Positions 9,851 to 57,579 of a stretch of DNA of 64,000 bases are shown here, in pieces (within the stretch, counting starts at the first letter, position 1; each line of letters begins with the position of its first letter). A program made the position numbers and the translations under genes. This DNA comes from Streptomyces sp. M10(2022) (GTDB lineage: Bacteria; Actinomycetota; Actinomycetes; Streptomycetales; Streptomycetaceae). The stretch spans positions 7,509,461 through 7,573,460 of the forward strand of contig JAMYWH010000005.1 in NCBI GenBank assembly GCA_038070475.1, given 5' to 3'. Under the pieces are notes generated by a model. It had not been told where the DNA came from. It saw nothing but the letters and a program-made list of their open reading frames with translations, and did no database searches.

Positions 9851-9859
9851 GAGATGTCA

Positions 9860-10703: not shown

Positions 10704-10737
10704 CATGCGCACCCTCTCGCTCTGGCACAGGACGCCG

Positions 10738-11800: not shown

Positions 11801-11838
11801 GTTCCACTCCTGCTCATGGACGCTGAAGGCAACGCTCA

Positions 11839-14570: not shown

Positions 14571-14645
14571 CGAGACCGCATCAACCTGGCGAGGAACCTA
14601 CTGTGGCATAAGAGACAATTCGGCTACAGCGAACGCCCCTAAGTC

Positions 14646-15110: not shown

Positions 15111-15692
15111 CCCTGCTCGTACTGATGCTGGGTGCGCCTGGTGTGGGCGGTGAGTCTGCGGCGGACCTGGCGGAGGCGCGGCCCGCCCACGATCGGGAGC
15201 GGGGCGTCGCGGAGTGGCACAGGCGTTGGTGGCCGAGCAGGGCGAGGAGGTGACCCACCTGGCCGCCGTACGGGTCGACGATGCCGGTGGACGCGACGGA
15301 GGTGCTGCTCGCCGGTGCGGTGATCAACATGCTGGCGGTGGGCGTGCTGTCGGCGGCACTTCTGGCCGCCGCAGCCGGGCTCTGGGCGCGTACCGTGGAG
15401 GACGGCGCCCTCGCCAAGCACGCGGGGACGCGCTCTGCACGGTAGGGCGCCCCATGACGGCCCCAGCAGCTGGCGGTCATATCAGCGTTTCTTCGCTGAG
15501 GAGGTGCGCGCATACGCTGGCGTAGGTCGTATGGCACAGAGCCCGCCGCCCGGACCCGGATGCGCGTACGATCTGCGGCCGGGCCGCCGTTCTTCAGCGG
15601 GCCCAGGACCTCCTCCTCGCCCCTGGCAGAGCCCGCCTTCGCGGAGCTGCTCGCCCTGGGGCCGGTGCAACGGCACCCGGCCGGCTGAGCGT

Positions 15693-19467: not shown

Positions 19468-20913
19468 CTAGTAGGGCTTGGTCAGGTTGGTGTGCGTGTG
19501 GGTATGTCGCGGTGGCAGGTGGGGCATGCACCGGCCCAGGTGGCGAGGAGTGATTGCAGCTCGCGGACGATCTGGTAGAGGCTCAGGCCGGTGCCGTGTC
19601 TTTGGGGCGTGGGCCAGCCTCCGCAGGGTGCAGAAGGCATGGGCGAGGGAGGCGAGGGTGACGTGGTGGTGCCAGCCGTTGAAGGTGCGGCCTTCGAAGT
19701 GGGCAAGTCCCAGGGCCTGTTTCATCTCGCGGTAGTCGTGCTCGATGCGCCAGCGGAGCTTGGCCAGGCGGACCAGGGTGGTCAGCGGGGTGTCGGCGGG
19801 CAGGTCGGAGAGCCAGAACTGGATCGGCTCGGCCTCTTTGGCGGGCCACTCGGCCAGTAGCCAGCACTCGGCCAGTTCAACGCCTTCGGTGGCGTCACGG
19901 ATCTCGCGTCCTGCCGGGCGGATCCGCAGGGCCACGAAGCGCGAGTACATACGCTTCAAGCCGGTGCGGCCTTGCCCGGGCGTGAGCCCTCACGCCATGA
20001 GACCGGCTTAGCCGAACCACGACCCGCCTCGATGACCAGCGACTTCACGCTGCGGGCCGGGTCCGGATACCTGGGCACCGGCCGCCGTCCGATGCCGCTG
20101 TAGGGCGGGGTGAACGGACTGGTGGCGGCCGGGTGGGCGGTGGGCGTGGTGGAGATGCCGACCACGTAGTGCAGACCGCGCTGGTTCAAACCCAGACGGA
20201 AGGCCGCCGCGTCGCCGTAGCCGGCGTCTGCCAGCACCAGCGGGACATCGATGTCCCAGGACCGGGTCTCGTCAATCATGTCCAGCGCGAGTTGCCACTT
20301 CTCCACGTGGCCCAGGTCGGCGGGAATGCCGCACCGCTCGCGGCGGGCCACCTTGAGCGGGACGGCCTGCGGTGAAGCCGGGTCCCAGGACTTGGGCAGG
20401 AACAACCGCCAGTTCACCGGCGTCGAGGCGTGGTCGCGGGCCAGGTGCACCGAGACCCCGACCTGGCAGTTGGTGACCTTCCTGCGGTGCCGGTGTACTG
20501 CCGCGACACACACGCCGAAGCGTCGCCATCCTTCAAGAACCCGGTGTCGTCGACGATCAACGCCGTCGGGGCGATTGCCTCGTGCATCCGCCAAGCCAGC
20601 CGGGCCCGCACCTGGGCCCAACTCCACGGACTGGAGGTGACGAAATGCGCCAGCGCTTGCCGGTTGCCATCCTCGCCCAGCCGAGCGGCCATCGGTTCCA
20701 CCGATTTGCGCCGTCCGTCCAGCAGCAGTCCACGCACATACGCCTGCCCCCACCGATACTGGTCCGCGCGCGTGAACGCATCGAACATCTCCGCCGTGAA
20801 CGTCTCCAGGTCCTCCCGGACCTGATCCATCTCCTCAGGTGTCACACACCATCAACGCGCCCACAGACACCAAGACACGCCACCAGTGCGTACATCTGAC
20901 CAAGCCCTACTAG
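19468..20913 (-). mobile_element. IS701-family insertion sequence, copy 1
   Basis: It has 18-bp terminal inverted repeats (CTAGTAGGGCTTGGTCAG / CTGACCAAGCCCTACTAG). The transposase is split over 3 ORFs (MTPEEMDQVREDLETF, VTNCQVGVSVHLA, LFLPKSW, LKWRIEHDYREMKQALGLAHFEGRTFNGWHHH). Confidence 0.9.
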
Positions 20914-25437: not shown

Positions 25438-26830
25438 TCAGCGGCCTTCGGTCGGCCCGAGCCCGGTCAGCGCATCGGCATGGGCCAGACCGCTCTCCGC
25501 CGCGACCGAGTCCAGCGACTGGGCGTCGCGCACCGGCGCGAAGCGCACGCCGTCCCCTGCGGCCCGGCGCTGAAGCCGTACACAGCGGGCCGCGGCAGGC
25601 TGTTGTAGCCCCACGGGGTGGAGAGTAGTACGCACCCGTGTCGTACAGGACGACGAAGTCGCCCTCCCGCAGCTCCGGGAGCTCCCGTGCGTGCGCCACC
25701 ACATCCCCGGCGAAGCAGCACGGACCCGCGATGTCCTGGACCATGGCGGGCCCGCTGTGCGGAAGTCCCGCCGCGTCGAAGGCGCCGACCCGCAGCGGCC
25801 AGGCGTCGGGCATGAAGACGGTACGCGTGGCGATCTGCGCACCCGCATGGGTGAGCGCGATCCGGCGCCCGCCCGCGTCCTTCGTGTACTCCACCAGCGC
25901 TGCGATGAAGCCGTTCTTGGCGAGCAGTGACCGGCCGAACTCGGTGACCAGCGCGTACCTGCCGTCGAAGAGGCCCGGCGCCGTGGTCCGCAGGGCGGCC
26001 ACATAGTCGGTGAAGGCGGGCCGGACCGTGTCGTCGGCGAAGTTGACCGGCAGTCCGCCGCCGATGTCGATACTCGTGATCTGCCGGGCGCCCAGCGTCT
26101 CGTTGATCTCCTCCGCGAGCCGGTAGGTCTCCGCGATGCCTTCCGCGATGAGCCCCAGCGAGCAGCCCTGTGAGCCGACATGGGCATGCAGCCGGGTCAG
26201 CCACGGCCGCTCGGCGAACGCCTGCACGACGCGCTCGCGGGCCCCGGGTCGCGTAGGGCCACACCGAATTTGAGGTTTCGGTCGCGGTGCTCATCGCTCC
26301 GATGGAACCGCCGCCCACCTGCGGATTGACCCGGAGCCCGAGGACGGACAGCGATTCGGGCGACCGCAGTTCGTCCATACGGTGCAGCTCGGCGAAGCTG
26401 TCCGCGTTCACCGCGACGCCGAGCTCCAGCGCCAGCCGGAGCTCGTCTCGGGTCTTGGCCGGGGAATCGAGGACGATCCGCGCCGGTGTGAACCCGGCCT
26501 CGAGCGCGAGCCGCAGCTCACCGGGGCCGGCCACCTCGCACCCCATTGCACAGTCGGCGAGGAGCCGCAGTACGGGGATGAGGGAGGCGGCCTTCGCGGC
26601 GAAGGTATGGAGCACGGGCACGCCGGGCACGTCGGCGAACGCATCCCGCAGGGCGGCCACGCTGTCGCGCACTCCGTCGGTGTCGATGAAGCCTGCGACG
26701 GGCTGGTCCTCGCCGAGCATCCCTCCTCGACGGCGCTGCGCAGCGCAGCGGCGAACCGGGCGGTGGGCGTAGCGCGAAGGGGTTCTGTGGAGCTCGGGGG
26801 CTCGTCATAGGAGTCATACCGCGAGAGTCG
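25438..26830 (-). CDS. PLP-dependent fold-III decarboxylase (diaminopimelate/ornithine-decarboxylase-like), frameshifted
   Basis: It carries HAHVGSQ, IDIGGGL and a C-terminal beta-domain (FVVLYDTGAYY...). Confidence 0.75.
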
Positions 26831-26944
26831 GTGATGGGTCCCCACCGGTCATTGTCGGGAGGGACAAGAATGTCGGCAAATCCTGGTCTGTCGGGCAATC
26901 ACCATGCGAAACCGGTTGAAACAGCTGCCGCTCCGCTCAGACAT

Positions 26945-27791
26945 CACCCGCTAGGAGTTGTCGTCAAAGTGTCACGCCCACATCAGCAGAGAGGCGAGGG
27001 TTACGGCTGCCTGGAAGGACTCGGCGGTTTTGTCGTAGCGGGTCGCGATGCCGCGCCATTGCTTCAAGCGGTTGAAGCACCGTTCCACAACGTTGCGCTG
27101 CTTGTAGATCTCGCGATCGACCACTGGCGGACGTCCGCCGAGGCTGCCGCGCCGGGCCCGGTTGCGAATCTGGTCGGCCCGTTCCGGGATGGTGTGCGCG
27201 ATGCCCCGGCGTCGCAGCCAGGCCCGGATCGCCTTCGAGCTGTAGCCCTTGTCTCCCAAGACATGATCGGGCCGTACGCGGGGTCGGCCAGGACCGAGAC
27301 GGGGCACCCGTATCGCCTCCATCACGGCGGTGAACTGGGTGCAGTCGTTGGTGTTCCCGCCGGTGAGAACGAAGGCGAGCGGTCGGCCGACAGCATCGCA
27401 GACCAGGTGAATCTTGCTGGTCAGTCCACCTCTGGAGCGGCCGAGCGCCGGGTTTCGGAGCCCCTTTCGGGCCCCGGCCGCGTGCTGGTGGGCTCGGACG
27501 ATGGTGGAGTCGACCGATACCAGCCAGTCGACCTCACCGGCCGCATCCGCCCGCGCCTGGGCTTCCCGGAGCATCCGCTCGAAGGTGCCGTCCCTGGCCC
27601 ATCGGCGGAAGCGAGTGTGCAGCGTGGCCCAGGATCCGTACCGCTCGGGTACGTCCCGCCAGGCCGTGCCCGTCCGGAACTTCCAGACGATCCCGTTAAG
27701 AACCGTCCGGTCCGGGTGATACGTCGCCATGAACTGTCCGATGCCGAGTGGGAACCATGATTTACCACGCAAGATCATTTGACGACAGACC
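26945..27791 (-). mobile_element. IS5-family (IS427-group) insertion sequence, copy 2, with an intact 268-aa transposase (26972..27778)
   Basis: The transposase carries NGIVWKFRTGTAWRDVP, DSTIVRAHQHAAGARK and DKGYSSKAIRAWLRRRGIAHTIPER. The terminal inverted repeats are imperfect (TGTCGTCAAA core). CTAG flanks both ends (26941-26944 and 27792-27795), and the right-hand CTAG is shared with the IS701 inverted repeat. Confidence 0.85.
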
Positions 27792-29236
27792 CTAGTAGGG
27801 CTTGGTCAGGTTGGTGTGCGTGTGGGTATGTCGCGGTGGCAGGTGGGGCATGCACCGGCCCAGGTGGCGAGGAGTGATTGCAGCTCGCGGACGATCTGGT
27901 AGAGGCTCAGGCCGGTGCCGTGTCTTTGGGCGTGGGCCAGCCTCCGCAGGGTGCAGAAGGCATGGGCGAGGGAGGCGAGGGTGACGTGGTGGTGCCAGCC
28001 GTTGAAGGTGCGGCCTTCGAAGTGGGCAAGTCCCAGGGCCTGTTTCATCTCGCGGTAGTCGTGCTCGATGCGCCAGCGGAGCTTGGCCAGGCGGACCAGG
28101 GTGGTCAGCGGGGTGTCGGCGGGCAGGTCGGAGAGCCAGAACTGGATCGGCTCGGCCTCTTTGGCGGGCCACTCGGCCAGTAGCCAGCACTCGGCCAGTT
28201 CAACGCCTTCGGTGGCGTCACGGATCTCGCGTCCTGCCGGGCGGATCCGCAGGGCCACGAAGCGCGAGTACATACGCTTCAAGCCGGTGCGGCCCTTGCC
28301 CGGGCGTGAGCCCTCACGCCATGAGACCGGCTTAGCCGAACCACGACCCGCCTCGATGACCAGCGACTTCACGCTGCGGGCCGGGTCCGGATACCTGGGC
28401 ACCGGCCGCCGTCCGATGCCGCTGTAGGGCGGGGTGAACGGACTGGTGGCGGCCGGGTGGGCGGTGGGCGTGGTGGAGATGCCGACCACGTAGTGCAGAC
28501 CGCGCTGGTTCAAACCCAGACGGAAGGCCGCCGCGTCGCCGTAGCCGGCGTCTGCCAGCACCAGCGGGACATCGATGTCCCAGGACCGGGTCTCGTCAAT
28601 CATGTCCAGCGCGAGTTGCCACTTCTCCACGTGGCCCAGGTCGGCGGAATGCCGCACCGCTCGCGGCGGGCCACCTTGAGCGGGACGGCCTGCGGTGAAG
28701 CCGGGTCCCAGGACTTGGGCAGGAACAACCGCCAGTTCACCGGCGTCGAGGCGTGGTCGCGGGCCAGGTGCACCGAGACCCCGACCTGGCAGTTGGTGAC
28801 CTTCCTGCGGTGCCGGTGTACTGCCGCGACACACACGCCGAAGCGTCGCCATCCTTCAAGAACCCGGTGTCGTCGACGATCAACGCCGTCGGGGCGATTG
28901 CCTCGTGCATCCGCCAAGCCAGCCGGGCCCGCACCTGGGCCCAACTCCACGGACTGGAGGTGACGAAATGCGCCAGCGCTTGCCGGTTGCCATCCTCGCC
29001 CAGCCGAGCGGCCATCGGTTCCACCGATTTGCGCCGTCCGTCCAGCAGCAGTCCACGCACATACGCCTGCCCCCACCGATACTGGTCCGCGCGCGTGAAC
29101 GCATCGAACATCTCCGCCGTGAACGTCTCCAGGTCCTCCCGGACCTGATCCATCTCCTCAGGTGTCACACACCATCAACGCGCCCACAGACACCAAGACA
29201 CGCCACCAGTGCGTACATCTGACCAAGCCCTACTAG
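27792..29236 (-). mobile_element. IS701-family insertion sequence, copy 2, in direct orientation with copy 1
   Basis: It has the same terminal inverted repeats as copy 1. It differs from copy 1 only by homopolymer-length changes (GGGG/GGG, CC/CCC, GGG/GG), and a 348-aa ORF persists. Confidence 0.9.
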
Positions 29237-29244
29237 GCGCACCG

Positions 29245-30866
29245 CGATCATGAGGAGCAGTCGGGTGTCGGGGTCGTCGGTGTCCACCCCGAAACGTTCC
29301 CGCACCCGGCGCAGCCGGTAGCGCAGGGTGTTGGGATGCACGACGAGCTGCCTCGCCGCCCTGCCGACGTCCCCGAAGCATCCAGGTAGGCGGCCAGCGA
29401 GCGGACCAGTTCACCCCGGCCGCGAGATCGGTGCGCACGAGATCGTGCACCGGCCCGGTGCCCGACTCCCACAGAGGCTGTACGGCGTCCAGGACCCGCA
29501 GGACATCGAGTGCGGGTCCGGCCTCGGCGGGTCCGGCATGCCGTACCGGTACGCCATCGCCGCCACGGTCCTCGCGCTTACGCAGCACCCGCAGGACGAG
29601 TGCCGCCTCCTCGCACGAGACGGCAGCTGCCGGGGCGGAAGGGACCACGGGCCCGCCCCGCCCGGACCGGTACCCCGCCCGGCAGCGACACGGCGAGCCG
29701 GTCCAGTTCCCTGGCCAGCGCGAGTACATCCCGCTCCCGTCCCACAGCCGCGGGCAGCAGCACCAGCAGCCGCTCCGGCTCACGCAGCACGAGCGCGCCG
29801 GGCCGGAAGGCGGTGGCCTGCAACGCCAGCACATCCAGGGTGCGGCCGGCCGGCCGCCGCGAGGCCCGGCCGGCTCCGCGATCACCACGGCGCACGGCGC
29901 GTCCGGGGAGAGGCCCAGCGACCACGCGTGCGTGCGCTGGTCACCCTGCCCGTACAGCAGGCCCCGCAGTGCATGATCCCGGCGCCGCACGGCCCGCTCT
30001 CGCGTAGCCGGTGCTGCACCAGATGGGGGCGGCGGCCTCGGCGGCACCCGCAGGGCGTCCGCGGCCAGCGGGAGAGGCTGCGCCCGTCCGCTGCGACCCA
30101 GATGGAACCGAGCACCTCGGGGCCGCTGCGGACGGCGATGACCAGACGCTCCGGGCTGTCGCCCTCCGCGGGCCGGCGGATCACGTCCCGTGAGGTCCAC
30201 AGCGCTCGCAGAATCCCGCTGCGGCGCAGTTCGGCGATGCGCCACTGAGGCACTCGCCCGCCCAGAATCGTGGACCTGCGCACCCGGTCGGCCTCAGGCC
30301 GGGTGGCTGAGTGGGCCAGCACCCGGAACCGGGTGTCCTCAATGGTGATCGAGCCGCCCGTCGACTCCGCGATGGCCTCGGCGAGAGCCCCGAGACCGCC
30401 CACGCCGTCCTCGTCCCGCCGGTGCGCCTCCTCGTCGCGGCCCGCACCGGCGAAGGCGAGTGCGGAACGCAGCAGCGCCGCGGTGTCCGTCCAGTCGGCC
30501 CACGCAGCCCGGCCAGCAGGGCGAGCCCCGTGTCCTCGGCAGCGGCAAGCACATCCGGCGCCGTGGACTCACCCTGCGTATCGCGCAGGATCACCGCGCA
30601 GGCACCGCGCCGGGCCGCGTCGCGCACCCCGCCACCGCGTCGGCACTGGCCGCGGGCGGGCCGACGGCCAGCACGACATGGGCATCGGCGAGCCGTCCGG
30701 CCTCCTCGTCACCGAAAGCCACGCCACGGACCGTGACGTCCTGCCCGGCGGGCGCGAGCAGCAGCCGCAATGTCCCCGCGTCGTCGAACGCGAGGATCTC
30801 GCGGAGTGTTGCCCCGGCTGCCACCGGTGCGCCCTGGGGCCGGCTGCTGGTCACAGGAGCGAGCAT
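29245..30866 (-). CDS. PucR/CdaR-family transcriptional regulator. The 3' end runs into the IS701 inverted repeat
   Basis: The C-terminal HTH region reads PNTLRYRLRRVRE...DTDDPDTRLLLMIAVR. The N-terminal fragments are in ORFs 29882..30403, 30181..30627 and 30591..30866. Confidence 0.7.
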
Positions 30867-30903
30867 ACGAGCCTGCGGGCGCCGGGGTGCTCAGCGGCCG
30901 CGC

Positions 30904-31699
30904 TCAGGCGATGAGCGGGACCACTGCCTCCGGGGTCAGCATCCGGAAGGTGAAGGCCTGCTGGAAGTAGAGCCGGACGCTCGTCGCGTCATGGTCCAGG
31001 TAGCCGATGGACAGGTCCTGTCCCAGCCGCAGCTCGAAGTCCCCGCCGCGAGTGGACAGCAGTACCCGCCGGTGACGGCTGGCGCCCACAGGATCGTGTC
31101 GTCGAGCAGCCGCGCCAGATGTGTGGTCACCGGGTAGCCGTGATCGGAGGTCTCGGTGGCCTCGGTGAAGGCATCGGCGCCGAGCAGCAGCCGGTAGGGA
31201 CCGTCGACGCCGGCCAGCCGCAGCTGTGTCAGGGCCTGGCTCACCGCCGCCGGATAGTCGCGTGCATCGGCCGGCAGCGGGTGCGGGCGTGCGAGGAGCC
31301 GTCCCGCAGACCGGTGATCCCGGCCGCCGCGTACCCGTCGATGACGGCCATGTCCTCGGCGAACGCGCAGGTACGGGCCGCGTCCTTGACCGGCTGCCAG
31401 TCGCTGTCCTCGGACCCCGTTCGACGTCGTCGACGGCGGCCCGGTGACCGTGAACGGCACCCGCCACTCGATGAGGGGCGCCGATGTGCGGGCGCGGGCG
31501 ACCACGTCCGGGGCGGGCGGGTCGATGTCCCGCAGGTGTCCGTCCCCGATCGCGGCCAGCCCCGGCCCTGCGGGTCGCCGACGTCCACGACCCGGCGCCC
31601 GGCCACATGGCGGCTGAAGGTGCGCCGGGCCTCTTCTTCGATCTGGCCCCATGCGGCGTCCGTGACGGGGCGAGTTCGCGGTGGAGGTTGTTCATCGCC
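30904..31699 (-). CDS. family-1 encapsulin shell protein (Linocin_M18-like), frameshifted
   Basis: It starts MNNLHRELAP and carries ITDAAWGQIEEEARRTF, DHGYPVTTHLARLLDDTILWAPA and RGGDFELRLGQDLSIGYLDHDATSVRLYFQQAFTFR. Confidence 0.85.
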
Positions 31700-32761
31700 G
31701 GTCGCTTTCTTGCAGGCTGCCGATTCGCAGCGAACCATCGCCCGACGCCGCGGCGGCGGGCCTGCGGCACTGGCGCGGACGCCGGGTGCAACAGTGTCGC
31801 GGCCACGGCGGGGCGGGCGACGGCGGCGGGGCGTCGAGGAAGTCGGCGCTGGGGTGTAGAAGAGCGTGCCGGTGACGGCGGTGGAGAAGTCGAGAATGCG
31901 GTCGTGCGTGGCGGTCGGGTCGCCGAGGAACATGTTGCGGAGCATCTGCTCGGTCACCTCCGGATCGGCGGCGTATCCGATGAAGTACGTGCCGAATCCG
32001 CCCTGTTCGAAGCTGCCGAAGGGCATGTTGGCCCGCAGGATGTCGTGTTCGGTGCCGTCCGGGTCGGTGATGGTGTTCAGCGCCACATGGGAGTCGGCGG
32101 GTTTGACGTCGTCGGCGAGTTCGATGTCGGTGAACTTGGTGCGGCCGATGATCTGTTCCTGCTGCTCCGTGCTCAGCCTGTTCCAGCCGGCCAGATCGTG
32201 CAGGTACTTCTGCACGACGGCGTAGCTGCCGCCCGCGAAGCCGGGGTCGCTGTCGCCGACCAGCGCTGCCGCCACGGCGTCGCCGCCCACCGGGTTCTCC
32301 GTACCGTCGACGAAGCCGAGCAGATCCCGGTGGTCGAAGTAGCGGAAGCCCTGGGTCTCATCGACGACCGTTACGGCCCCTCCGAGCCTGCCGAGCAGTT
32401 GACTCATCCACTCGTAACAGACGTCCATCTGTTCGGCCCGGACGTGGAACAGCAGATCGCCCGGGGTTGCCGGAGCATGGTGCAGCGGACCCCTCAACTC
32501 CTGGAACGGGTGCAGCCCGGCCGGCCTGGGGCCGGCGAACAGCCGGTTCCAGGCCTCGGAGCCGAATCCCGTCACACAGGCCAGCTGGGCACTGGGGACC
32601 CGGAAGCCGATGGAGCGGGCGAATGCCGCGAGATCGGGCAGTGCCTCGCGTACGGCAGCTTCGCCGCCCGGTTCGATCGTGGCCACCACAATCAGCGCTG
32701 CGCTGGTCAGCGGAGCTACGACGGGCTGGACCGCGACGGGGTCCGGGACGGCGTCGGGCAT
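31700..32761 (-). CDS. Dyp-type (dye-decolorizing) peroxidase with a C-terminal extension. It is the probable encapsulin cargo
   Basis: It starts MPDAVPDPV and carries GFVDGTENP, FIGYAADP and GTLFYTP. It sits directly upstream of the encapsulin gene with no intergenic gap. Confidence 0.85.
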
Positions 32762-34888: not shown

Positions 34889-35133
34889 CATCGTGTGTCC
34901 CTTCGCAGTGGGGTCCCGCCGGCCGTCAGGCCTTCATTCGCCGCCCTGTATGCAATTCCACTCCGGTCGCGCGGGTGCCGCAACGGAAGAGGGGCGGGGA
35001 GTGCCCCGAGGGAGCCCTAGATGACAATGAAAACGATTGTCGATAACGTATGTGCCATCGGGACGGACGGCCCCTCTGCCGGGGTGACTCATGCCTGCCC
35101 GCAATTCCAACAGAACTGTTTGAAGGGGAGTTC

Positions 35134-36385
35134 GTGGCTCACCTACTGGTGGTCGAGAGCTGGGTCGGATCGATGAGCAGGCTGCTGCCCAGGGCGCTGG
35201 GTGAGGGTGGGCACCACTTCACCTTCCTCACCCGCGACCTCGGGCACTATCTTCACGCCGCCCCGGAAGGCGCCGGTCATCCGCTGCTCACGGCCCGCAA
35301 CATCATCACGGCACAGACCAATGACGCCGGAACCCTGCTGCCCGTGGCCGAGCGGCTGCACGCCGCACTCGGCTTCGACGGAGTGATCACCTCCTGCGAC
35401 TACTACCTGCCCACCGCCGCCCGGATCGCCGCCCGGCTTGGTCTGGCGGGACCCAGGCCCGAAGCGATGGAGAACGCCTGCCGCAAGGACGCGACCCGTC
35501 GTGTCCTGGCCGCCGCGGGCTCCCCGGCCCCAGGTTCGCCGTCTGTACGGACGCGGTCGCCGCCGCCGAGGCCGCCCGGGACATCGGCTACCCGCTGGTG
35601 TTCAAGCCGGTGGATCTGTGCGCGGGCATGTTCGTACGGCGTATCGACGACGAACGGCAGCTGGCGGCGGCCTGCCGTGCGCTGAGCGCCTTTCCCGTCA
35701 ACGCCCGCGGACAGCGCGCAGCCCCGACATCCTGCTGGAGGAGCTCCTCGACGGCCCGGAGGTCAGTGTGGAGACGGTGCTCCACGCGGGCACGGCCCAT
35801 GCGGTAGGGTGACTGACAAGAGTGTCGGCGGCGCACCCGCGTTCATCGAGACCGGCCATATGTTCCCGGCGGCTCTCACGCCCGACGACGTCGAGGCCGC
35901 CACCGGAACCGCCCTGAGCGCGGCGGCCGCGCTCGGCCTCGACGACGTCGTGACGCACACCGAGATCAAGCTGACCTCCGCAGGGCCGCGCGTCGTGGAG
36001 GTCAACCCCGGCCCGCGGGCAACCGGATCACCGAACTGGTCCGCCACGTGACAGGCATCGACCTCGCCGCCGCCTGCATCGATGTGGCACTGGGCCGCGA
36101 GCCCGACCTGCGCCGGCGCGACACCGGGCTGCTCAGCGCGGCCATCGGATTCCTGGTCCCCGGCACCGCGGGCACGCTCGCGTCCATCGACGGCAGCGCC
36201 GGGTGCGCGCCGCCGCCGGGGTGCTCGATGTCCAGCTGGCCGAACCCGGCAGAAGGGTCGAGGCGGCGAAGAGCAACAACGAGTACCTGGGGCACGTCAT
36301 GGCCGGCGACCCCACAGGGCCCGGCGCCCGCGACCGGGTCGAATCGCTGCTCGGTGAACTGCGTCCCCGGCTGGTGCGGGCATGA
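35134..36385 (+). CDS. ATP-grasp enzyme (L-amino-acid-ligase-like), frameshifted
   Basis: It has a GTG start (VAHLLVVESW). The ATP-grasp core carries YPLVFKPVDLCAGMFVRR, EELLDGPEVSVE and VVEVNPRPAG. Confidence 0.75.
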
Positions 36386-37225
36386 CCGTCACCGTATCCA
36401 CGGAAGCGGAGCCGCTGACTCTCCACGGGCTCCTGCGCCGGGTGCTGGCCGGGGAGCTGGGGCCGGATCCGCGTACCCGCCGGATCGCCGTGGCCTTCAC
36501 GACATCCCAGGCCGTACGGCACGACGGGCGGCGCGGCGGGTACCGCAACGAAGTCCTCAGCCTCCGCCTCGGCCGTGCGGTCGGGTCCTGTGCTGTCGAG
36601 CCCGGCGCCCTGGCCGGCGAAACGGTCCACGACTGCGCGGGTGCGGACGTCGCCCGGCTGCTGGAACACCCTGCCTGCCCGTCCGGGTGGCGGCCCTGGA
36701 CGCCTATCTGATGGACGTCCTGCCGCACACCCCGCACCACGGCGCCAGGCCGGTGGGCATCCCCGCCGGAAGTTCACTGGAGCGCTCCCTGGCGCGCGCG
36801 AAGGCTGTCGTCGATCTGCTGGAGGTACGCCCCGGTGCCACGGTCCTGGTCGTCGGAGTCGTCAACTCCCTCCTGGCGGAGCTGCGTTCACGGGGCTTCG
36901 GATACATCCCGTGCGACCTGTTGGGCGGCACCACCGAATGGGGAGAAAGTATCGCCACCGATGCCCTCGAGCGCATCGAACACTGCGACGCGGTGCTCGC
37001 GTCCGGCATGACGCTCGGCAACGGGACCTTCGACCCGCTGCGGGCGCATGCCCTGCGCCACGGCAGGCGGCTGGTGATGTTTGCCCAGACGGGCAGCGCG
37101 GTCCTGCCCGGTTCCTGGGCGCCGGAGTCGGCGCGGTGTGCGCGGAGCCGTATCCGTTCTTCTGGCTCGACGGCGGCTCCGGCACGATCCACCGCTACCG
37201 CGCCGACGACAGGGGTACCTCATGA
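36382..37225 (+). CDS. Rossmann-like DUF364/DUF4213-type protein (tentative)
   Basis: It carries VLVVGVVNSLLAELR...CDAVLASGMTLGNGTFDPL...LVMFAQTGSAVLP. Its ATGA start overlaps the upstream stop. Confidence 0.5.
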
Positions 37226-38353
37226 CAACGGCATCACTGGACACCCTCGCACCCAACCGCGGGCTTCTCGCGCTGCTCGGCCGCACCCGCTGGCGAGAGT
37301 CACAACCGGGCTGCCGGGGCCCCACCCGGCTTCTGGGCCAAGCTCGAAGGCCAGGCCGTAGGCGGCATGAAGGCCCGGGCAGCGGTTTCCATGCTGCTCG
37401 GCGCGGAAGAACGCGGTGAACTGCTCCCCGGAGCGCCAGTGGTGGAATCCACCTCGGGCACCCTCGGCATAGGACTGGCCTTCGCCGGACAGGCGCTCGG
37501 ACACCCCGTCGTCCTGGTGGGCGACATCGAACTCGAGCCGTCCATGCGGCAGTTGCTGCGTTCGTACGGAGTGCGGCTGGAGCTCGTCGACCGCCCGGCC
37601 GAACACGGCGGCTGGCAGGGTGCCCGGCTCGCCAGGCTGCGGCAGCTGCTCGGCCGGCTGCCGGACGCCTACTGGCCCGACCAGTACAACAACCCCGACA
37701 ACATCGCCGGTTACGCCTCCCTCGCCGCCGAACTGGCCACCCAGCTCGACCACCTCGACATCCTCGTATGCAGCGTCGGCACCGGCGGGCACAGCGCCGG
37801 AATCGCCGGACCGCTTCGCAGGCACTGGCCCGCGCTGCGCCTCATCGCCGTGGACGCCACTGGATCCACCATCTTCGGACAGCCCGCGGCACCACGCCTG
37901 ATGCGTGGCCTCGGCAGCAGCATCCACCCGCGCAACGTCGCCTACGAGGCGTTCGACGAGGTCCACTGGATCGGCCCGGCCGAGGCCGCGGACGCCTGCC
38001 GGCGCCTGGCCAGGGGCAATTTCGTCAGCGGCGGCTGGAGCACCGGCGCCGTCGCACGCGTCGCCGCCTGGGCCGCCCGCACCAATCCCGGTGCGGCGGT
38101 CGCCACGGTCTTCCCCGACGGACCGCACCGCTATCTCGGCACCGTCTACGACGACGACTTCGCCGCCACCCACCAACTGGAGACGGACGCCGCGGCAGCC
38201 GAACCCGTCGAGATCCCGCACCGAGAACCACCGGGCCGGGGCTGGGCCCGGTGCACCACCGTCACTGATCCGCTCGCGGACCCATCCCCGTCCCCGCCGG
38301 CCGCGATCCGGCTGCCGCACCGAAAGCCCCATCGACCGGAAGAGAACCGGTGA
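37222..38353 (+). CDS. PLP-dependent cysteine-synthase/SbnA-like beta-replacement enzyme
   Basis: It carries FWAKLEGQAVGGMKARAA (lysine-PLP region), STSGTLGIGLA, GTGGHSAG and PDGPHRYL. It is frameshifted near the N-terminus and its ATGA start overlaps the upstream stop. Confidence 0.75.
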
Positions 38354-39447
38354 ACGTCACGCAGCGCACCGAACGGCTCGTCCTCACCGAGCCACTGCGC
38401 ATCTCGCGATCGATCATGGCCGCCCGCGACGCCGTCCGGCTGACCGTAGGACACGAGGGCCTGCACGGCCACGGAGAAGCGGTCACCAGCGTCTACTACG
38501 GGCTCGACACCTCCACCCTCCAACGCCTGATCGCCGAAACCGCCGGACAGCTGGCCCGCTTCGGGGACCGGAGACAGCCCTGCACGCCCTGCGCACGGGC
38601 GAGCTCAGCAGGTCCGCCACCCCGCCGCGGTGACCGCTGCCGTCGAGGGGCGCTTCTCGACCTGGTCGGCAAACGCACGGCAACCGCCGTCCACCGGTTC
38701 CTGGGATCTTCATCCGCACCCCGGACCGCGACTGCCCGCACCATCTCGCTCACCTCGGCCGGACGGGCGGCGACGCAGGCCCGGCGGCTCGCCGACGCCG
38801 GATTCACGGTGATCAAGATCAAGGCCGGTGACCCGGATCCCGAACTCGATCTCGACCGGGTCCGGGCCGTGCGCGGCGGCCCCGGCGCCCGGCTGCTGCT
38901 CGACCCCAACGGGGCCTGGACGGCACCGCAGGCACGCCGGCTCCTGCCCCGGTTCGGTGAGCTCGGGATCGAGGCGGTCGAGCAGCCGCTGGCCCCGGGC
39001 GACCCGGAAACCCTGGCCCGCCTGGCTGAACGCTCGCCCGTGCCCGTCATCGCGGACGAGGACGCCGTCAGCTACGAGGACGCGCGGCGTCTTGCCGGCC
39101 GCGTCCACGGCATCAACGTCAAACTCGCCAAATGCGGCGGCGTCCACGAGGCCCTGCGCATCGCCGCCCTGATCGAGGGCAGCGGGACGGAACTCATGCT
39201 CGGCTGCCTGACGGCCAGCACCCTCGGCATCGCACCGGCCGTCCATATCGCCGACCGAGCCCGGTGGATCGATCTGGACGGGCATCTGCTGCTCTCCCAC
39301 GATCCCTGGACCGGCATCGGCGGCAGCGACGGATTCGTGGCCGCGAGCGAGCGGCCGGGGCTGGGCGTACGACCACGCGGCACGGCACCGGACGAAGCCC
39401 TGCCCGGCCTGCCGGAGCCCCGTACGTCCTGCGGAGTGGCCTTGTGA
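38350..39447 (+). CDS. enolase-superfamily (MR/MLE) enzyme, probably a dipeptide-epimerase-like protein
   Basis: It carries KIKAG, LLDPNGAW, EQP, IADE and KLAKCGG. Its GTGA start overlaps the upstream stop. It is frameshifted near residue 100. Confidence 0.7.
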   Translation: MNVTQRTERLVLTEPLRISRSIMAARDAVRLTVGHEGLHGHGEAVTSVYYGLDTSTLQRLIAETAGQLARFGDRRQPCTPCARASSAGPPPRRGDRCRRGALLDLVGKRTATAVHRFLGSSSAPRTATARTISLTSAGRAATQARRLADAGFTVIKIKAGDPDPELDLDRVRAVRGGPGARLLLDPNGAWTAPQARRLLPRFGELGIEAVEQPLAPGDPETLARLAERSPVPVIADEDAVSYEDARRLAGRVHGINVKLAKCGGVHEALRIAALIEGSGTELMLGCLTASTLGIAPAVHIADRARWIDLDGHLLLSHDPWTGIGGSDGFVAASERPGLGVRPRGTAPDEALPGLPEPRTSCGVAL

Positions 39448-39650
39448 GGACCTGGCACGAAATCCGCAGCTTCCCACCCGCCGTCCGCCTCCTGCTGGTC
39501 AACCAGCTCGGTGTCAACACCGGCTTCTACCTGCTCATCCCTTTCTCGCCAGCCACCTCGACGACAACCTGGGCATGTCGGCAGCTGTCGTCGGCATCGT
39601 CCTCGCGATGGAAGACCGCACCCGGCCCGGAAAGGAGCGACGCCCGTGAA
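39444..39650 (+). pseudogene. MFS transporter N-terminal remnant (about 68 codons)
   Basis: It reads VRTWHEIRSFPPAVRLLLVNQLGVNTGFYLLIPF...VVGIVLA and then stops abruptly. A GTGA overlap links it to the ABC gene. Confidence 0.55.
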
Positions 39651-41164
39651 CCAGCCTCCCGTACTCGCCGACATCAACGCACTGACCGTCGAGATCGACG
39701 GACGCGTGATCGTCGACCGTGTCGGCTTCCGGATCCGGGCCGGTACGGTCACCGCGCTTGTCGGCGCATCAGGCAGCGGCAAGACGACGACCGGACTCGC
39801 CCTGCTCGGCGAGTACCCGCGGGCGCCAGGGTGACGGGCGAGGTGCGGATGCACGACACCCGTGTCGGCTACATCCCCAGCACCCGCTGCCGTCCTGAAC
39901 CCGGCCCGCCGTATCGGCGCCCTCCTGCTCGACATGGCGCGACAGCAGGTGCGCGACCTGCCCAGGTCCCGGCGCCGCACAGCCGCACGCGAGCGAGTGA
40001 TCGAGGTGCTGGGCAACGCTGAACTACCCGACCCGGAAGCCATATTGCGCCGATACCCGCATCAGCCGTCCGGTGGCCAGCAACAGCGCGTCGTCCTCGC
40101 GCAGGCACTGCTCATCGGCGCTCGCATCCTCGTGGCCGACGAACCCACCACGGGGCAGGACACCCTCACCGAACGCCGCATCGTGGGCCGGCTGGCAGCA
40201 GTGGCCCGCCGGGGCGTGGCCGTGGTGCTGCTCAGCCACGACCTCGACGTCGTACGGGAACTCGCCGACGAGGTGCTGGTGATGCGCGGCGGCCGTGTGG
40301 TGGATCGCGGACCGGCACACCGCCTGCTGGACGACGCCCCGCACGCCTGCGGACCCGGAAATCCTTGCCGCGTCAGGCCGACCGCCCCTCCCGGAAACCG
40401 GCACTCCCAGGGCGCAGGTGCTGCGCGTGGACGGACTCGCACTGCGAACCGGCGAATGCCTCGCCGTCGTCGGACGCTCGGGCAGCGGCAAGACAACGCT
40501 CGCCCGCTGCCTGGCCGGCCTCCACCGAGACCATCAGGGCGAGGTGCTGCTCGACGGGACGCCGCTGCCCCGCAGTCTGCGTGACCGCAGCCGCGAGCAA
40601 CTCGCCGCCGTGCAGTACGTCTTCCAGGACGCGCGGGCCGCCTTCGATGAACACCGTCCCGTCCTGGACCAGGTGGCACGCACTGCCGTACGCCTGCGCG
40701 GCGCCGGCCGGCCGGAAGCGGAGCAGGAAGCCCGGCAGACCCTGGCCGACCTGGGACTGGAGGGGCAGCTCGTACGCCGTCCGCCCGGACTCCTGTCCGG
40801 CGGCGAACTCCAGCGCGCCGCGCTCGCAAGGGCACTCCTCGCCCGGCCCCGGGTGCTCGTCTGCGACGAAATCACCTCCGGGCTCGACCCGGTCACCCGG
40901 CGTGTCCTGCTGGACCTGCTGGCCCGGTTCCTCGAACAGCGGGACGGGCTGTCCATCGTGCTGATCACCCACGACCTGGACACGGCTGCCGTACTGGCGG
41001 CACGCATCGTCGTACTGGACGGCGGGGAGATGGTCGAACAGGGCTCGGCACAAAGGATTCTGACCAGTGCCCGGCACCCGTTCACGGCCGCGCTGCTCGG
41101 TGCGTCGACGCACTGGGGAGCTGCCGTACGTTCCCGATCGCACGAGCCGGATCCGGCCACTTAG
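39646..41164 (+). CDS. ABC ATP-binding protein with two NBDs (DppD/DppF-like, fused or overlapping), frameshifted
   Basis: NBD1 carries GASGSGKTT and SGGQQQRV. NBD2 carries GRSGSGKTT, LSGGELQR and VCDEITSGLD. Both show the oligopeptide-type C-terminal region. No cognate permease or substrate-binding-protein gene is adjacent. Confidence 0.7.
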
Positions 41165-41173
41165 GGTTGTCTC

Positions 41174-42079
41174 CATGTGGCCTGGACAGCAGTCGACCGG
41201 TAGCGAGCACAATCCGTACCAGCAAGGACAAGGGGCTCAGGGGCCGGCTCCTGGGCAGCGCCCACGCTCCCGGGTGGGATGCCCTCGCCGCCGCCCCTCC
41301 TCGGCGCGGCGGCGGCAGGACCGCGGTCATCGCCGTCGTGGCGGCGGCTGCCGTTGTGATCGCCGCCGGGGTGACCGGATTCCTCGTACTGGGTGGCGAC
41401 AAGGACGAAAAGGCTGCGCCCGTTGCCACACCCACGGCTTCCGGAACGGGTGCCGGCGCCGCACGCGCGGGCACCGATGGCGAAGCTGTTCCCGTCATAC
41501 CCGGCTGGAAGACGGTGGTGAACCCAAGCGCGGTATCGCCTTCGACGTTCCCGTCGAGTGGGCGCTCAAGTCGGTGACCTGGTCCAGCTATGTCGCGGAC
41601 AACAACGATCCGGAGGAGAAGCCCCTTGTCGGCTTCAGCGCCCCGGCCGTGCTCCAGGAGAAGTGGTGCACGTCCGACGACGACCGGGACGGCAGCATGG
41701 ACGACAGCCCCTGGCCACCGCGGGTTCGCGGGGTGAGAGCGCGGCCAGGAGCACCGGGGAAGCGGCCAGGAGCAACGCGGACCTGTGGGTGTTCGGGGCC
41801 TATGCCCAGCCGGACAGGAAGAAGGTCACCACCGGTGCGGCCGAGTCCTTCACGACCGGGTCCGGTATCACCGGCAGCGTCGCGACGGCCACTTCCTCCG
41901 GTGTGGTGAAGAAGGGCAAGTGCGACACTGACGGCAAGGCCACGGCGTTCGCCTTCAAGAACGCGCAGGGAGAAATCGTCTCCTGGACCTTCATCGGCGC
42001 GCTCGGTGTCGCGGACGAGGTGCCGGACGCGACCGTACGGAAGATCCTCGGCACGGTCCGTCTGCTGGACGGCCACTGA
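41174..42079 (+). CDS. hypothetical membrane-anchored protein, frameshifted
   Basis: It has a Pro/Gln-rich N-terminus, one TM segment (VIAVVAAAAVVIAAGVTGF) and a C-terminal domain ending LLDGH. Confidence 0.45.
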
Positions 42080-42106
42080 TCCGGGCGCAGAGCCCTCCGC
42101 ACATCC

Positions 42107-42146
42107 GAGCGTCCCGGCAGCCGCCCGTCCGGCCGCCGGGACGCTC
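42107..42146 (+). terminator. perfect 12-bp-stem hairpin, a candidate intrinsic terminator
   Basis: The stem is GAGCGTCCCGGC ... GCCGGGACGCTC and lies 28 bp after the stop at 42079. There is no clear U-tract, which is common in high-GC genomes. Confidence 0.4.
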
Positions 42147-42583
42147 TGCTGTCCGGGGCGGGAGGGCTTCGCCCCGGCCGAAGCGGAATCAGAACCACCT
42201 GACCGGACGTACACTCGGCTCATGGGTCGCACTAGTGCCACGAGGGAGTGCCTGCAGCAGGCCACCTCCGTGCTGCGCCCGCTCGCCCGGACCCGGCAGT
42301 CACCGGCCCGGCGACCACAGCAGGACTGGACGCGCCGAAGAACTGCCGCATAGCGCTGCACGGTCACGGCTAGCGATCTTCAGCGGTTTCTGACCGGGTG
42401 ATCCCGGCCGCTGCTTCTCCACGTACATCGCAGGACATTTCTGCCAGGCCGGTCTGTCGTGCCCGGCACCCGCCGGACGGGAACGACCGCCGGCTCCACC
42501 ACATCACCGCAGCTTCGGCTTACCGCCGTCGCTGCTGACAGGCGACGCCGCACCACGGCAGAGCCACCTTCGAAGGGATCATC

Positions 42584-44053
42584 TTGAAACTGAGCGAGCT
42601 GCTGGCAGGGCAGGAGTACCACACTCTCCAGGGTGACCCGGAGAAGACGTGGATCACCGCGGGAACCGCCTTCGACGCGGACCGGGTGGTGCCGGGCTCG
42701 CTTTTCATCGCGGTCCCCGGCCACGTCGAGGAGGTCCGGGCTCAGTCGCCCCGGCCCTCGCACGGGGAGCGGTTGCAGTACTCGTCGACGGCACCGCACC
42801 CGCGCTCCCCGCATCGGAAGCGGATGTATGCGTAGTGCGGGTGCCGGACACCCGTACCGCCGCCGCGGTCGTCGCCTCGCGCTACTTCGGTGAGCCGGGC
42901 CGGCAGATGGACATGGTGGCGATCACCGGCACCAACGGGAAGACCTCGGTCTCGTACATGGTCGAGTCCGTGCTGCGGATCTCCGAGGGCGTGAGGGCCG
43001 GAGTCATCGGAACGGCCGGGAGCAGGATCGGTGACGAACTGATCCCGATGCCGCGGTCGGTGCTGACCACGCCGGAATCCCCGGACCTGCAGTACCTGCT
43101 GGGGTGCATGCGCGACCGGGGTGGCCAGTGTGGTGCTCGAGGCCACGTCGATGGGGCTGCTGACACACCGGGTGGACCGTACGTTCGTCGACGTCGGAGT
43201 CTTCACCAACCTGAGCCAGGACCACCTGGACGACCACGGGACGATGGAGAACTACCGGGACGCCAAACTCCGACTCTTCCAGGGTCTGTGCCGGCACGCG
43301 GTGGTCAACATCGACGACGCGGTGGGCGCCACCATCCCGGCGATGATGCCCGGCGCGGTGACGACGTACGCCCTGGACACCGAGGCGGACTACCGGGCCA
43401 CCGATCTGACCGTCGACGCCCGGGGTACCCGCTTCACGCTGCACCACGACGGCCGCAAGTACCCGGCGGCGATCCCCGCACCCGGCAGGTTCTCCGTCGC
43501 CAACGCGCTGGCGACGGTGGCGGCCTGCCACGTCCTCGGGCACGACCTGGCAGGGCTGGTCGACGCCCTCGAACGGATGCCGCAGATCCCGGGCAGGTTC
43601 GAACGCTTCCAGACCCCGAAGGGCACTTCGGTGATCGTGGACTACGCGCACTCCCGGACTCCTGCACAAGGTCCTGACCACGATCCGCGGCTTCGCCGGG
43701 GCCAAGGTCATCACGGTCTTCGGCTGCGGCGGGGACCGGGACACCACCAAGCGTGCCGAGATGGGGAGATCGCCGGAACCCACTCCGACCTGTGCGTCCT
43801 GACCTCCGACAATCCCCGCAACGAGGACCCCGGGGCGATCATGGACCAGATCGCCCCCGGCATCGAATCGACCGGTACCCCGTTCGAGCGCTTCGCCGAC
43901 CGCCGCCAGGCCATCGCCTCGGCCCTGGCCGCCGCCGGCCCGGACGACATCGTCCTGGTCGCGGGCAAGGGCAGCGAGCCGTATCAGATCGTCGGCGACG
44001 ACCTGATTCCCTTCAGCGACATGGCCACCGTGCACGAACTCGCGGAGGCGTAA
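42584..44053 (+). CDS. Mur-ligase-family protein (MurE-like paralog), frameshifted
   Basis: It carries [53 protein letters not shown] and VAGKGSE. Confidence 0.8.
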
Positions 44054-56470: not shown

Positions 56471-57531
56471 TCACGCCGAGTCGCGTACCACCAGCGCGGG
56501 TTCGAAGATCACCGAAGTCGCCGGGCTGTCCGGCCTCGCCAGCCGGTCGAGCAGGAGCCGGGCCATCTCGGCAGCCATGTCCTCCACCGGCTGGCGCACA
56601 GTGGTCAGCGCGGGCCGGCAGGCGGAGGCCGCGCTGCTGTCGTCGAAGCCGATCACCGCCACGTCCTCGGGTACCCGCCTGCCGTGCTCGCGCAGTACAT
56701 GGCACGCCCCCATCGCCATCAGGTCGTTGCAGGCGAACACCGCGTCCAGATCGGGGTGTTCGATCAGCAGCCGCTCCATGGCGGCCTCCCGCTCTCCTGG
56801 GTGAACAGCCCTCGGCGACCGGGATGTACGGATGTCCGCGCCGCGCCATAGTGTCCCGGAATCCGGCCAGCCGGTCCTGGCCCGCGGGCACGTCCAGCGG
56901 ACCGCTGATCGTCGCGATGCGGCGGCAGCCCGGGCAAGCAGATGCTCGGCGGCCAGCCGTGCACCGTCCTGGTGGGCGAGGTCGACGTAGCTGATCCGTG
57001 CCGGCCTGGCGGGGCGGGCGTACAGCACCGCTGGCAGGCCCGCTTCGGTGATCAGACCGGGCAGCGGATCCTGCGCGTGCGTCGACACGACCAGGGCGCC
57101 GTCGGCGCTGCCCTGCCGCAGATAGGACATCACCTCCTCACGGGCGCGTGAGGTCTCGGCGAACATCAGCACGGGATGTATCCCGCGAGGCCGGAGGAAG
57201 TCGACGACGCCGGTCACCACCCTGCCGAAGAACGGATCGGCGAAGACCTGGGCGGTGAAGGAAGCACCGTCGCCGGCATCCGGTTCGACACCTGCGCCCG
57301 ACACCACCAGGGCGATCGCGTCGGCGCGCCTGGTGACCAGGGACCGGGCCGCGCGGTTGGGCATGTACCCGGTGACGGCCACCGCCTGCCGCACCGCCTC
57401 CTGGATCACGGGGTCCACATTGCGTACACCGTTGATGACCCGTGAGACGGTGGCGCGCGAGACACCGGCGGCTCTCGCCACGTCCTCCAGGGTGGGTGCC
57501 GTGCCGGCCGATCGCAGATCATCCGTCATGA
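56471..57531 (-). CDS. LacI-family transcriptional regulator (CebR-like), frameshifted
   Basis: The N-terminal HTH reads PTLEDVARAAGVSRATVSRVING. The periplasmic-binding-fold core carries VIGFDD. Confidence 0.8.
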
Positions 57532-57579
57532 GCGCATTTATAGCATCAGTGGAGAGCGCTCTCCTCCGCTCCGTCTGCC

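Follow-up and report, generated by a model that had tools for sequence, protein, structure and literature searches.

What does the gene cassette at 35 to 44 kb of a 64,000-nucleotide stretch of Streptomyces sp. M10(2022) make, and why does it trail off into pieces of transporter genes? The stretch, here called the window, covers positions 7,509,461 to 7,573,460 of contig JAMYWH010000005.1 (assembly GCA_038070475.1) and has a G+C content of ~70%. The initial annotation, made from its letters, described four coupled genes for an ATP-grasp ligase, a DUF364-type protein, an SbnA-like enzyme that uses pyridoxal phosphate (PLP) and an enolase-superfamily epimerase, followed by a remnant of a major facilitator superfamily (MFS) gene, an ATP-binding cassette (ABC) ATPase with twin nucleotide-binding domains (NBDs), and a MurE paralog. 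Comparison with related genomes indicates that the cassette belongs to a ten-gene operon, autonomous and widespread in Streptomyces, of which the window holds a truncated copy. We propose, with a probability of roughly 0.6, that the operon is repressed by Zur and serves to make, export and re-import a small metallophore derived from amino acids, that the copy in the window is truncated, and that the small insertions and deletions (indels) throughout it are errors. On the present sequence evidence, the locus is probably best read as an uncharacterised zincophore system.

How the cassette is organised elsewhere was addressed in a one-genome-per-species collection, in which at least 511 stretches encode a DUF364 relative. 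The best 80 of these all come from Streptomyces, and the conservation counts given here refer to 81 Streptomyces species loci; the source genome of the window was not among the best 80. In Streptomyces sp. NBC_00683, which carries an intact operon and served as the reference (locus L001), the order is ATP-grasp, DUF364, PALP (the PLP enzyme), MR_MLE (the epimerase), MFS (424 amino acids), methyltransferase (267 amino acids), SBP_bac_5 (a binding protein of 531 amino acids), two permeases and the twin-NBD ATPase, and each junction except that between the methyltransferase and binding-protein genes is a 4-bp start/stop overlap. S. liliifuscus and S. auratus are further examples of species with an intact operon. 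All ten genes occur in this order in 79 of the 81 loci. One of the two exceptions is ended by the contig end. The other, in Streptomyces sp. NPDC060035 (locus L004, positions 8697-15284), has a Zur box and four intact enzyme genes, and everything from the MFS gene through the ATPase gene is absent; a four-gene version can thus remain intact. In this same locus, a MurE paralog lies ~0.7 kb past the epimerase gene. The flanks of the operon vary between lineages (loci L085 and L086 were examined), and thus the ten genes constitute an autonomous unit. We found no publication on the operon or its gene order in the literature searched, in keeping with the earlier remark that the order matched no described pathway. 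Homologs of the cassette are indeed co-localised in other genomes, and the four-gene group is real, but it is only the front half of a ten-gene operon, which had been overlooked, and in the window 5.26 kb has been deleted from the middle of that operon. In the window, the operon and its upstream region read as follows.

35021..35049, plus strand: putative promoter with Zur box, from motif match and conservation
35021-35026, plus strand: -35-like hexamer ATGACA, a candidate assignment
35028-35042, plus strand: Zur box TGAAAACGATTGTCG, inside the 17-nucleotide spacer
35044-35049, plus strand: -10-like hexamer TAACGT, a candidate assignment
35134..36385, plus strand: L-amino-acid-ligase-like ATP-grasp gene, from Pfam and solved relatives
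36382..37225, plus strand: DUF364 (PF04016) gene, from Pfam and fold
37222..38353, plus strand: SbnA-like PLP beta-replacement enzyme gene, from Pfam, NCBIfam and solved relatives
38350..39447, plus strand: enolase-superfamily dipeptide-epimerase-like gene, from Pfam MR_MLE_C
39444..39649, plus strand: deletion scar with a fusion of MFS and permease 2, from alignment to the reference locus and tblastn
39646..41164, plus strand: twin-NBD ATPase gene of a Nik/Opp/Cnt-type importer, from two Pfam ABC_tran domains

The junctions of the window copy match those of the reference operon. ATGA overlaps at 36382 and 37222 and a GTGA overlap at 38350, all noted before, are present and identical to their counterparts, and the same style runs on into the MFS and ATPase genes, as had also been observed, with GTGA at 39444 and 39646. 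What lies between the epimerase and ATPase genes is a scar. The alignment to the reference locus ends at its position 13199 and resumes at 18459, such that 5.26 kb is absent, namely, the MFS gene from about codon 55, the methyltransferase, binding-protein and first permease genes, and most of the second permease gene. At the junction, near 39605, approximately the first 55 MFS codons run in frame into the final 14 codons of permease 2 (...VVGIVL followed by AMEDRTRPGKERRP and a stop), with the GTGA overlap into the ATPase gene preserved. The scar also carries one single-base deletion near 39540, and tblastn recovered only residues 1-63 of the MFS protein in the window. The deletion thus accounts for the MFS remnant and for the lack of a permease beside the ATPase in the initial annotation, and alignment and tblastn bore out both descriptions.

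How the operon is regulated is suggested by its upstream region, where a conserved Zur box had been overlooked. In the window, and in each of the 79 loci (of the 81) that have enough upstream sequence, an AT-rich palindrome precedes the ATP-grasp start, mostly at ~-115 bp. Most positions of the palindrome core, ATGAAAAYGATTRTCG, show 96-100% conservation, whereas its flanks are variable. A generic core, TGANAANNNTTNTCA, allowed one mismatch or fewer, matched 73 times in a background scan of 1.63 Mb of related loci, and 67 of the matches fell 40-220 bp before an ATP-grasp start. The Zur box of S. coelicolor, derived from chromatin immunoprecipitation (ChIP), is a 15-bp 7-1-7 palindrome, tGaNNatSatNNtCa, with the signature G2/G8/C14. 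The window sequence, TGAAAACGATTGTCG, agrees with it at 13 of 15 positions, keeps the G2/G8/C14 signature, also fits the actinobacterial Zur 21-mer, and resembles validated corynebacterial Zur sites. Moreover, the site at 35028-35042 is the only Zur-box-like site found in a scan of the full 64-kb window. A consensus promoter and terminator scan around the box called nothing, and thus we infer the -35 and -10 assignment. Motif and conservation place an operator of the Zur type before the first gene of the operon, from which regulation by Zur is inferred; with the promoter assigned as above, the operator would overlap it.

What the enzymes do can be approached from their families, and Pfam agrees with solved relatives or NCBIfam on the families first given to the ligase, the PLP enzyme, the epimerase, the ABC ATPase and the MurE paralog. 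Domains were called with Pfam on window proteins whose frames had been joined by hand. The ATP-grasp protein matches ATP-grasp_4 (3e-19) and LAL_C2 (1e-15) and combines the ATP-grasp fold with the C-terminal domain of L-amino-acid ligases (LALs); its closest solved proteins are the LAL BL00235 (3vot, 3e-34) and then BacD. The DUF364 protein matches PF04016 at 30.4 bits against a cut-off of 23, such that the proposed assignment survives a profile search and is matched by fold, and most of its orthologues carry a precomputed PF04016 match. A sequence search of the PDB with it gave no match even at E = 1, and therefore a fold search was used. The AlphaFold model of an orthologue (pLDDT 85.6) has as its best Foldseek matches the DUF364 structures 3l5o and 3npg, over ~253 columns with TM scores of 0.5-0.64, and the model predicts the two-domain fold, enolase-N-like plus Rossmann-like, of that family. 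In the window, the protein has a K181L change (36922-36924) in the CDxKGG motif, at a position that is invariant among 38 aligned orthologues and nearly so in the 81 loci.

The PLP enzyme matches Pfam PALP at 1.3e-49, and its best solved relative is SbnA (4e-40), with CmnB at 8e-35. Among NCBIfam models, PLP_SbnA_fam scores best, with 243 bits versus 148-168 bits for cysteine-synthase models, but the SbnA equivalog TIGR03945, with a cut-off of 350, is not reached. At SbnA positions 132, 152 and 185, orthologues of the operon enzyme carry Arg, Tyr and Gly, and the aligned PDB entry has Phe152 and Gly185; we take Arg132, Tyr152 and Ser185 to be the residues that set SbnA specificity, with Tyr and Ser presumably the wild-type identities at 152 and 185. 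The MR_MLE protein has dipeptide epimerases and L-Ala-D/L-Glu epimerases as solved relatives, and a look-up of the exact sequence of its window ORF returned no record. Its highest NCBIfam score is to DgcA, an N-acetyl-D-Glu racemase (223 bits versus a cut-off of 400), and it falls short of the Ala-Glu epimerase model PRK15129 (146 bits versus 343). It aligns with YkfB residues K160/K162, D191, E219, D244, K268 and D321/D323 and with YcjG R24, and the window copy retains all of them. Since the KxK, D/E/D, Lys, DxD and YcjG-type Arg residues are conserved, the substrate is likely to be an X-Glu dipeptide or else an N-substituted Glu whose ammonium group is free. Finally, the methyltransferase of intact orthologues is a class I enzyme that uses S-adenosylmethionine (SAM) and is closest to N-methyltransferases. 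This enzyme evidence agrees with the suggestion that the cassette could make and epimerise a small molecule derived from amino acids.

The transport genes of intact orthologues complete the picture. The MFS protein is MdtH-like, and the family 5 binding protein has an opine-binding protein as its best solved relative and is also close to NikA-type proteins. The best NCBIfam matches of the ATPase orthologue are NikD, CntF and CntD; in the window, this ATPase is now left with neither binding protein nor permeases, and an L142P change (~40069-40071) alters the LSGGQ signature of its first NBD. A Zur box, an exporter and a Nik/Cnt-like importer together point to a metallophore.

We propose the following sequence of events for an intact operon. 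When zinc is sufficient, Zn-bound Zur would occupy the operator in the spacer that separates the putative -35 and -10 elements, and the operon would be repressed. Under zinc starvation, the enzymes would assemble a small chelator derived from amino acids. For this, the SbnA-like enzyme would transfer an aminoacrylate unit from O-phosphoserine onto an amine, the ligase would form an amide bond, probably to glutamate, and the epimerase would invert the glutamate centre. The DUF364 protein, with an adenosyl cofactor, might perform chemistry at the SAM gamma-carbon, as Orf5 of the bonnevillamide pathway does, or might take an NAD-dependent role like that of SbnB, and the methyltransferase would cap an amine. 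The MFS pump would then export the product, and the Nik/Cnt-like ABC importer would bring back the metal complex.

The proposed system resembles known metallophore pathways in layout and differs from them in chemistry. The staphylopine and pseudopaline cnt systems likewise combine an epimerase or racemase, a SAM-using enzyme (here a candidate), an MFS-type exporter, an Opp/Nik-family importer and a zinc-responsive operator of the Fur family. As in cnt, the importer and the exporter belong to one operon in intact orthologues, of which the window keeps the ATPase only; the operon ATPase scores 270-274 bits versus CntD and CntF, and the binding protein matches CntA weakly. Unlike cnt, however, the Pfam lists of L001, L085 and L086 contain neither the nicotianamine-synthase-like CntL nor the opine dehydrogenase CntM, and the ten-gene operon has instead DUF364, the SbnA-like PLP enzyme, the ATP-grasp ligase, the enolase-superfamily epimerase and the methyltransferase. 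SbnA/SbnB and CmnB/CmnK supply L-2,3-diaminopropionate for staphyloferrin B and capreomycin, and SbnA and CmnB are the closest relatives of the operon PLP enzyme. In contrast to the SbnA/SbnB pair, the same three Pfam lists hold no SbnB-type partner of the ornithine cyclodeaminase family; DUF364 is the constant partner, and the PLP enzyme falls under the equivalog cut-off and has Gly at SbnA position 185.

The epimerase shares its catalytic, Mg-ligand, DxD ammonium-binding and Glu-side-chain Arg residues with YcjG and YkfB, but it scores under the equivalog cut-offs and higher for DgcA, and its context is biosynthetic rather than one of murein recycling. Bonnevillamide Orf5, a 4-methylazetidine-carboxylate synthase, shares its Pfam family and fold with the operon DUF364 protein. 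Orf5, however, is tied to a B12-radical SAM methylase in a nonribosomal peptide synthetase (NRPS) cluster, whereas the ten-gene operon has no such methylase and stands in a metal-transport context. A further parallel is the aes pathway of Amycolatopsis japonicum for [S,S]-ethylenediaminedisuccinate, a Zur-controlled, non-NRPS zincophore pathway of an actinomycete that was found by way of Zur boxes. The aes pathway has an SbnA-like first step and employs SbnA/SbnB-like enzymes and a decarboxylase. To our knowledge, it has no ATP-grasp, DUF364 or enolase-type epimerase.

Whether the pairing of DUF364 with an SbnA-like enzyme extends beyond Streptomyces was considered by a profile search of 1.84 billion representatives, which returned 319 related 50% clusters, 28 of them below 1e-30 and one from Corynebacterium kroppenstedtii. 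A sister family is present in many actinobacterial genera. In three loci, from C. kroppenstedtii, S. ambofaciens and Tsukamurella (L082-L084), the order is FecCD permease, ATPase, Peripla_BP_2, in some cases a methyltransferase-like gene, DUF364, in some cases MFS, GHMP kinase and PALP. The sister PALP is also SbnA-like; compared with the Streptomyces ten-gene operon, DUF364 is 43% identical and PALP 28%. Zur-like boxes precede the sister operon in all three organisms, and in S. ambofaciens a Zur-type paralog of ribosomal protein L32, with its own Zur-like box, adjoins it. The sister operon therefore repeats the pattern, with a recurring core of DUF364, SbnA-like enzyme, exporter, importer and Zur box. 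The genes named znuB2C2 in S. coelicolor and C. glutamicum were considered as the sister operon and rejected, as they are ABC-transporter genes (Zn/Mn-type in C. glutamicum) with nothing to tie them to it.

The only characterised DUF364 protein is bonnevillamide Orf5, which cyclises methylated SAM by nucleophilic chemistry at the gamma-carbon, and family-wide context analyses have linked DUF364 to metal transporters since 2010. We speculate, tentatively and with the odds rather against it, that the DUF364 and SbnA-like pair marks an unrecognised, actinobacteria-wide class of Zur-controlled zincophore pathways, and that in this class DUF364 stands in for CntL by SAM-dependent aminocarboxypropyl transfer or azetidine formation. 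The class would come in two architectures or more, one being the ten-gene operon of Streptomyces and another the FecCD/GHMP-kinase form of Corynebacterium, Tsukamurella and others. Such a class, if true, would explain the long-noted link of DUF364 to metal transporters. The Streptomyces zincophore discussed in the literature searched is coelibactin. The present operon occurs in at least several hundred Streptomyces species, has a textbook Zur box, and does without the known zincophore enzymes. Should its product prove to be a zincophore, it would be of a class of small molecules new among those with which soil actinomycetes acquire zinc, and the DUF364 family, with its one characterised member, would gain a second function, a physiological one; through the sister operon, the finding may extend to host-associated Corynebacterium.

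Several points weigh against a zincophore. The operator was assigned to Zur by motif only, and another regulator of the Fur family could bind it. Moreover, the Zur ChIP table of S. coelicolor lists no such operon, and thus it lends no indirect experimental support. The literature searched holds nothing on the product of the operon, its metal specificity or the binding of Zur to it, and homologs of CntL, CntM and SbnB are absent from the Pfam lists of L001, L085 and L086. No operon enzyme reaches an NCBIfam equivalog cut-off, such that the substrates given above are guesses. Finally, the copy in the window may be non-functional, having lost the exporter and importer and carrying the K181L change in DUF364 and the L142P change in the ATPase.

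Why so few genes of the window copy read as single open reading frames (ORFs) is a separate matter. The ORF list shows 38350-39447 and most of 37367-38353 as the only gene stretches within 35.1-44.1 kb that stand as one ORF each, and a plot of G+C at third codon positions shows that the frame switches every few hundred bases in the window. At the coordinates first given, the genes do not form continuous ORFs; at least 24 deletions of one or two bases break them, and these frameshifts had been missed. Searches by tblastn with intact orthologues from the reference locus (for the ABC ATPase and PALP, simply with intact orthologues) and nucleotide alignment gave the following counts.

ATP-grasp gene: 6 frame pieces; 5 frameshifting deletions relative to orthologues
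DUF364 gene: 3 frame pieces; 2 frameshifting deletions relative to orthologues
PALP gene: first ~35 residues without alignment; 2 frameshifting deletions relative to orthologues
MR_MLE gene: 3 frameshifting deletions, mutually compensating
ABC ATPase gene: at least 2 frame pieces; at least 4 frameshifting deletions
MurE paralog: 4 frameshifting deletions
6PGD gene, flanking: 4 frame pieces; 3 frameshifting deletions
decarboxylase gene, flanking: 4 frame pieces
encapsulin gene, flanking: 3 frame pieces; 6 single-base deletions

Single-base deletions lie near 35523, 35717, 35802, 36009 and 36204 in the ATP-grasp gene, near 36672 and 37107 in the DUF364 gene, and near the 5' end of the PLP gene at 37286 and 37325. 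Those of the MR_MLE gene, at 38564, 38621 and 38649, put ~30 codons out of frame and compensate one another, and thus its ORF stays open. Compared with orthologues, the window has ~30 frameshifting deletions, of 1-2 bases, versus 2 frameshifting insertions, and many of the deletions fall in G/C runs, as in CACCCCGC, which became CA-CCCGC. They leave most genes of the window broken or garbled, and sites that exemplify them across it include 31065, 33684, 34117, 37286, 39816 and 43121. After correction of the frame, the five operon genes have zero internal stops and are 75-86% identical to the reference; the ATP-grasp protein, for example, is 82% identical to its counterpart there and free of internal stops. 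Long ORFs elsewhere in the window give Pfam matches that are truncated or chimeric and fused. One such ORF, at 56471-58225 on the minus strand, joins Fn3-like, LacI and Peripla_BP domains in a chimeric match. The flanking 6PGD, encapsulin and decarboxylase genes show the same type of deletion, which argues that the defect is window-wide and reflects assembly error rather than decay of the cluster. We conclude that the 1-2-base deletions are most likely systematic sequencing or assembly errors and, since they are systematic in the window, that readings based on its ORFs are unreliable.

Pseudogenisation specific to the cluster was considered as the cause of the frameshifts and rejected, since flanking genes are hit too and correction of the frame leaves no internal stop. 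That the frameshifts are nonetheless genuine, and the entire cassette a decaying pseudogene cluster in this strain, is unlikely. Decay would fit the 5.26-kb deletion, which took out the export and import genes, and also the departures from near-invariant residues. The four enzymes have 7 such deviations in the window, where the 81 loci average 1.6 and reach 8 at most. The ATPase also has 7, where the loci average 0.5 and do not exceed 3, although 2-3 of its 7 lie in out-of-frame stretches, and its count may be put at 4-7. These deviations are suggestive, not conclusive, of relaxed constraint. But neighbours outside the cluster are broken alike, and other parts of the window likewise give truncated domain matches; the excess of deletions over insertions and the position of many of them in G/C runs, the open frames and amino-acid identity of 77-86% that correction restores, and the four intact enzyme genes that L004 retains in the absence of any transport genes all argue against decay as well. 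Alternatively, the operon might serve another metal, nickel or cobalt, or might be a zinc-sparing metabolic bypass in place of a chelator pathway, with its operator read by a different Fur-family regulator. The best transporter matches are indeed to nickel systems (a NikA-type binding protein and the NikD ATPase), and the operator was assigned by its motif. We nevertheless regard such a role as quite unlikely, as the operator has the G2/G8/C14 signature and the 7-1-7 palindrome of Zur, and the sister operon of S. ambofaciens adjoins an L32 paralog, a classic Zur target, with a Zur-like box of its own. The Nur box of Streptomyces probably also differs from the window motif.

Could the product be a dipeptide-type antimetabolite or antibiotic in the style of bacilysin, dapdiamide or tabtoxin, with the MFS pump for self-resistance and the ABC system an unrelated peptide importer? 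A ligase of the LAL type is typical of dipeptide antibiotics, the nearest solved proteins are BacD and BL00235, and there is a weak NCBIfam match to the dapdiamide synthase DdaF; moreover, the SbnA-like enzyme could provide a warhead of the diaminopropionate type, and an MFS efflux gene belongs to the operon. An antibiotic is improbable, however, given a Zur-type operator in every locus with enough upstream sequence, an importer that is translationally coupled in the same operon and closest to nickel and metallophore systems, and a sister operon that again combines an exporter with an importer, there of the FecCD metal-chelate type. Salvage or catabolism of imported peptides, opines or peptidoglycan stem peptides, with an Ala-Glu epimerase and MurE, is broadly what had been suggested at first. 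The epimerase keeps all of the catalytic and substrate-binding residues of L-Ala-D/L-Glu epimerases, the importer is Opp/Dpp-like with a binding protein whose best solved relative binds an opine, and a MurE gene lies downstream in the window. MurE, however, adjoins the operon in just 20 of the 81 loci, and thus the notion of a product like a peptidoglycan stem found no support; a strain-specific insertion also intervenes in the window, the ATP-grasp ligase, SbnA-like enzyme and methyltransferase are anabolic, an efflux pump lies within the operon, and a zinc-type operator lies upstream. We therefore consider salvage very unlikely and favour a Zur-repressed metallophore system.

Downstream of the operon, the window differs from its relatives, and three features follow the ATPase gene.

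41131..42165, plus strand: strain-specific insertion of ~1 kb with no counterpart in the 81 related loci
41174-42079, plus strand: frameshifted gene for a membrane-anchored protein, inside the insertion and not a member of the operon
42584..44053, plus strand: MurE paralog with a TTG start, from Pfam Mur_ligase_M and Mur_ligase_C

The membrane-anchored protein gave no Pfam match on the one frame tested, and a 60-nucleotide palindrome at 42097-42156 follows its gene and may be a terminator. The MurE paralog has frameshifting deletions at 42733, 43121, 43656 and 43768 and is, when frame corrected, 86% identical to its orthologue; the intact MurE orthologue of L004 passes the MurE equivalog model with 460 bits versus a cut-off of 373. 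Next to the operon, a MurE paralog is found in 20 of the 81 loci and a DUF5709 gene in 24, an arrangement that is clade-specific synteny. MurE was considered as an operon member and rejected on that count. In 16 related species, a conserved 30-codon small ORF rich in Cys and His (MG[RH]xGVxGKCLHQAAxGxxASxRxALHGHG) lies directly behind the ATPase gene and upstream of the MurE paralog. It is found at 42222-42353 in the window, where a 56-nucleotide insertion disrupts it, in 15 other loci, and at 20127-20219 in the reference locus. Behind the small ORF, ~60 nucleotides before the MurE start, there is a conserved GC hairpin leader.

Across the whole window, Rfam at gathering thresholds and a tRNA scan gave no matches. 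Upstream of the operon, a DDE-type transposase ORF (DDE_5 and DDE_Tnp_1) occupies 27806-28852 on the minus strand, and the syntenic reference locus lacks the ~4-kb stretch around it, 26800-30900, between its decarboxylase and encapsulin genes. Finally, an encapsulin (Linocin_M18) gene followed by a DyP-type peroxidase gene, a known encapsulin-cargo pair, lies at 30907-32761 on the minus strand.

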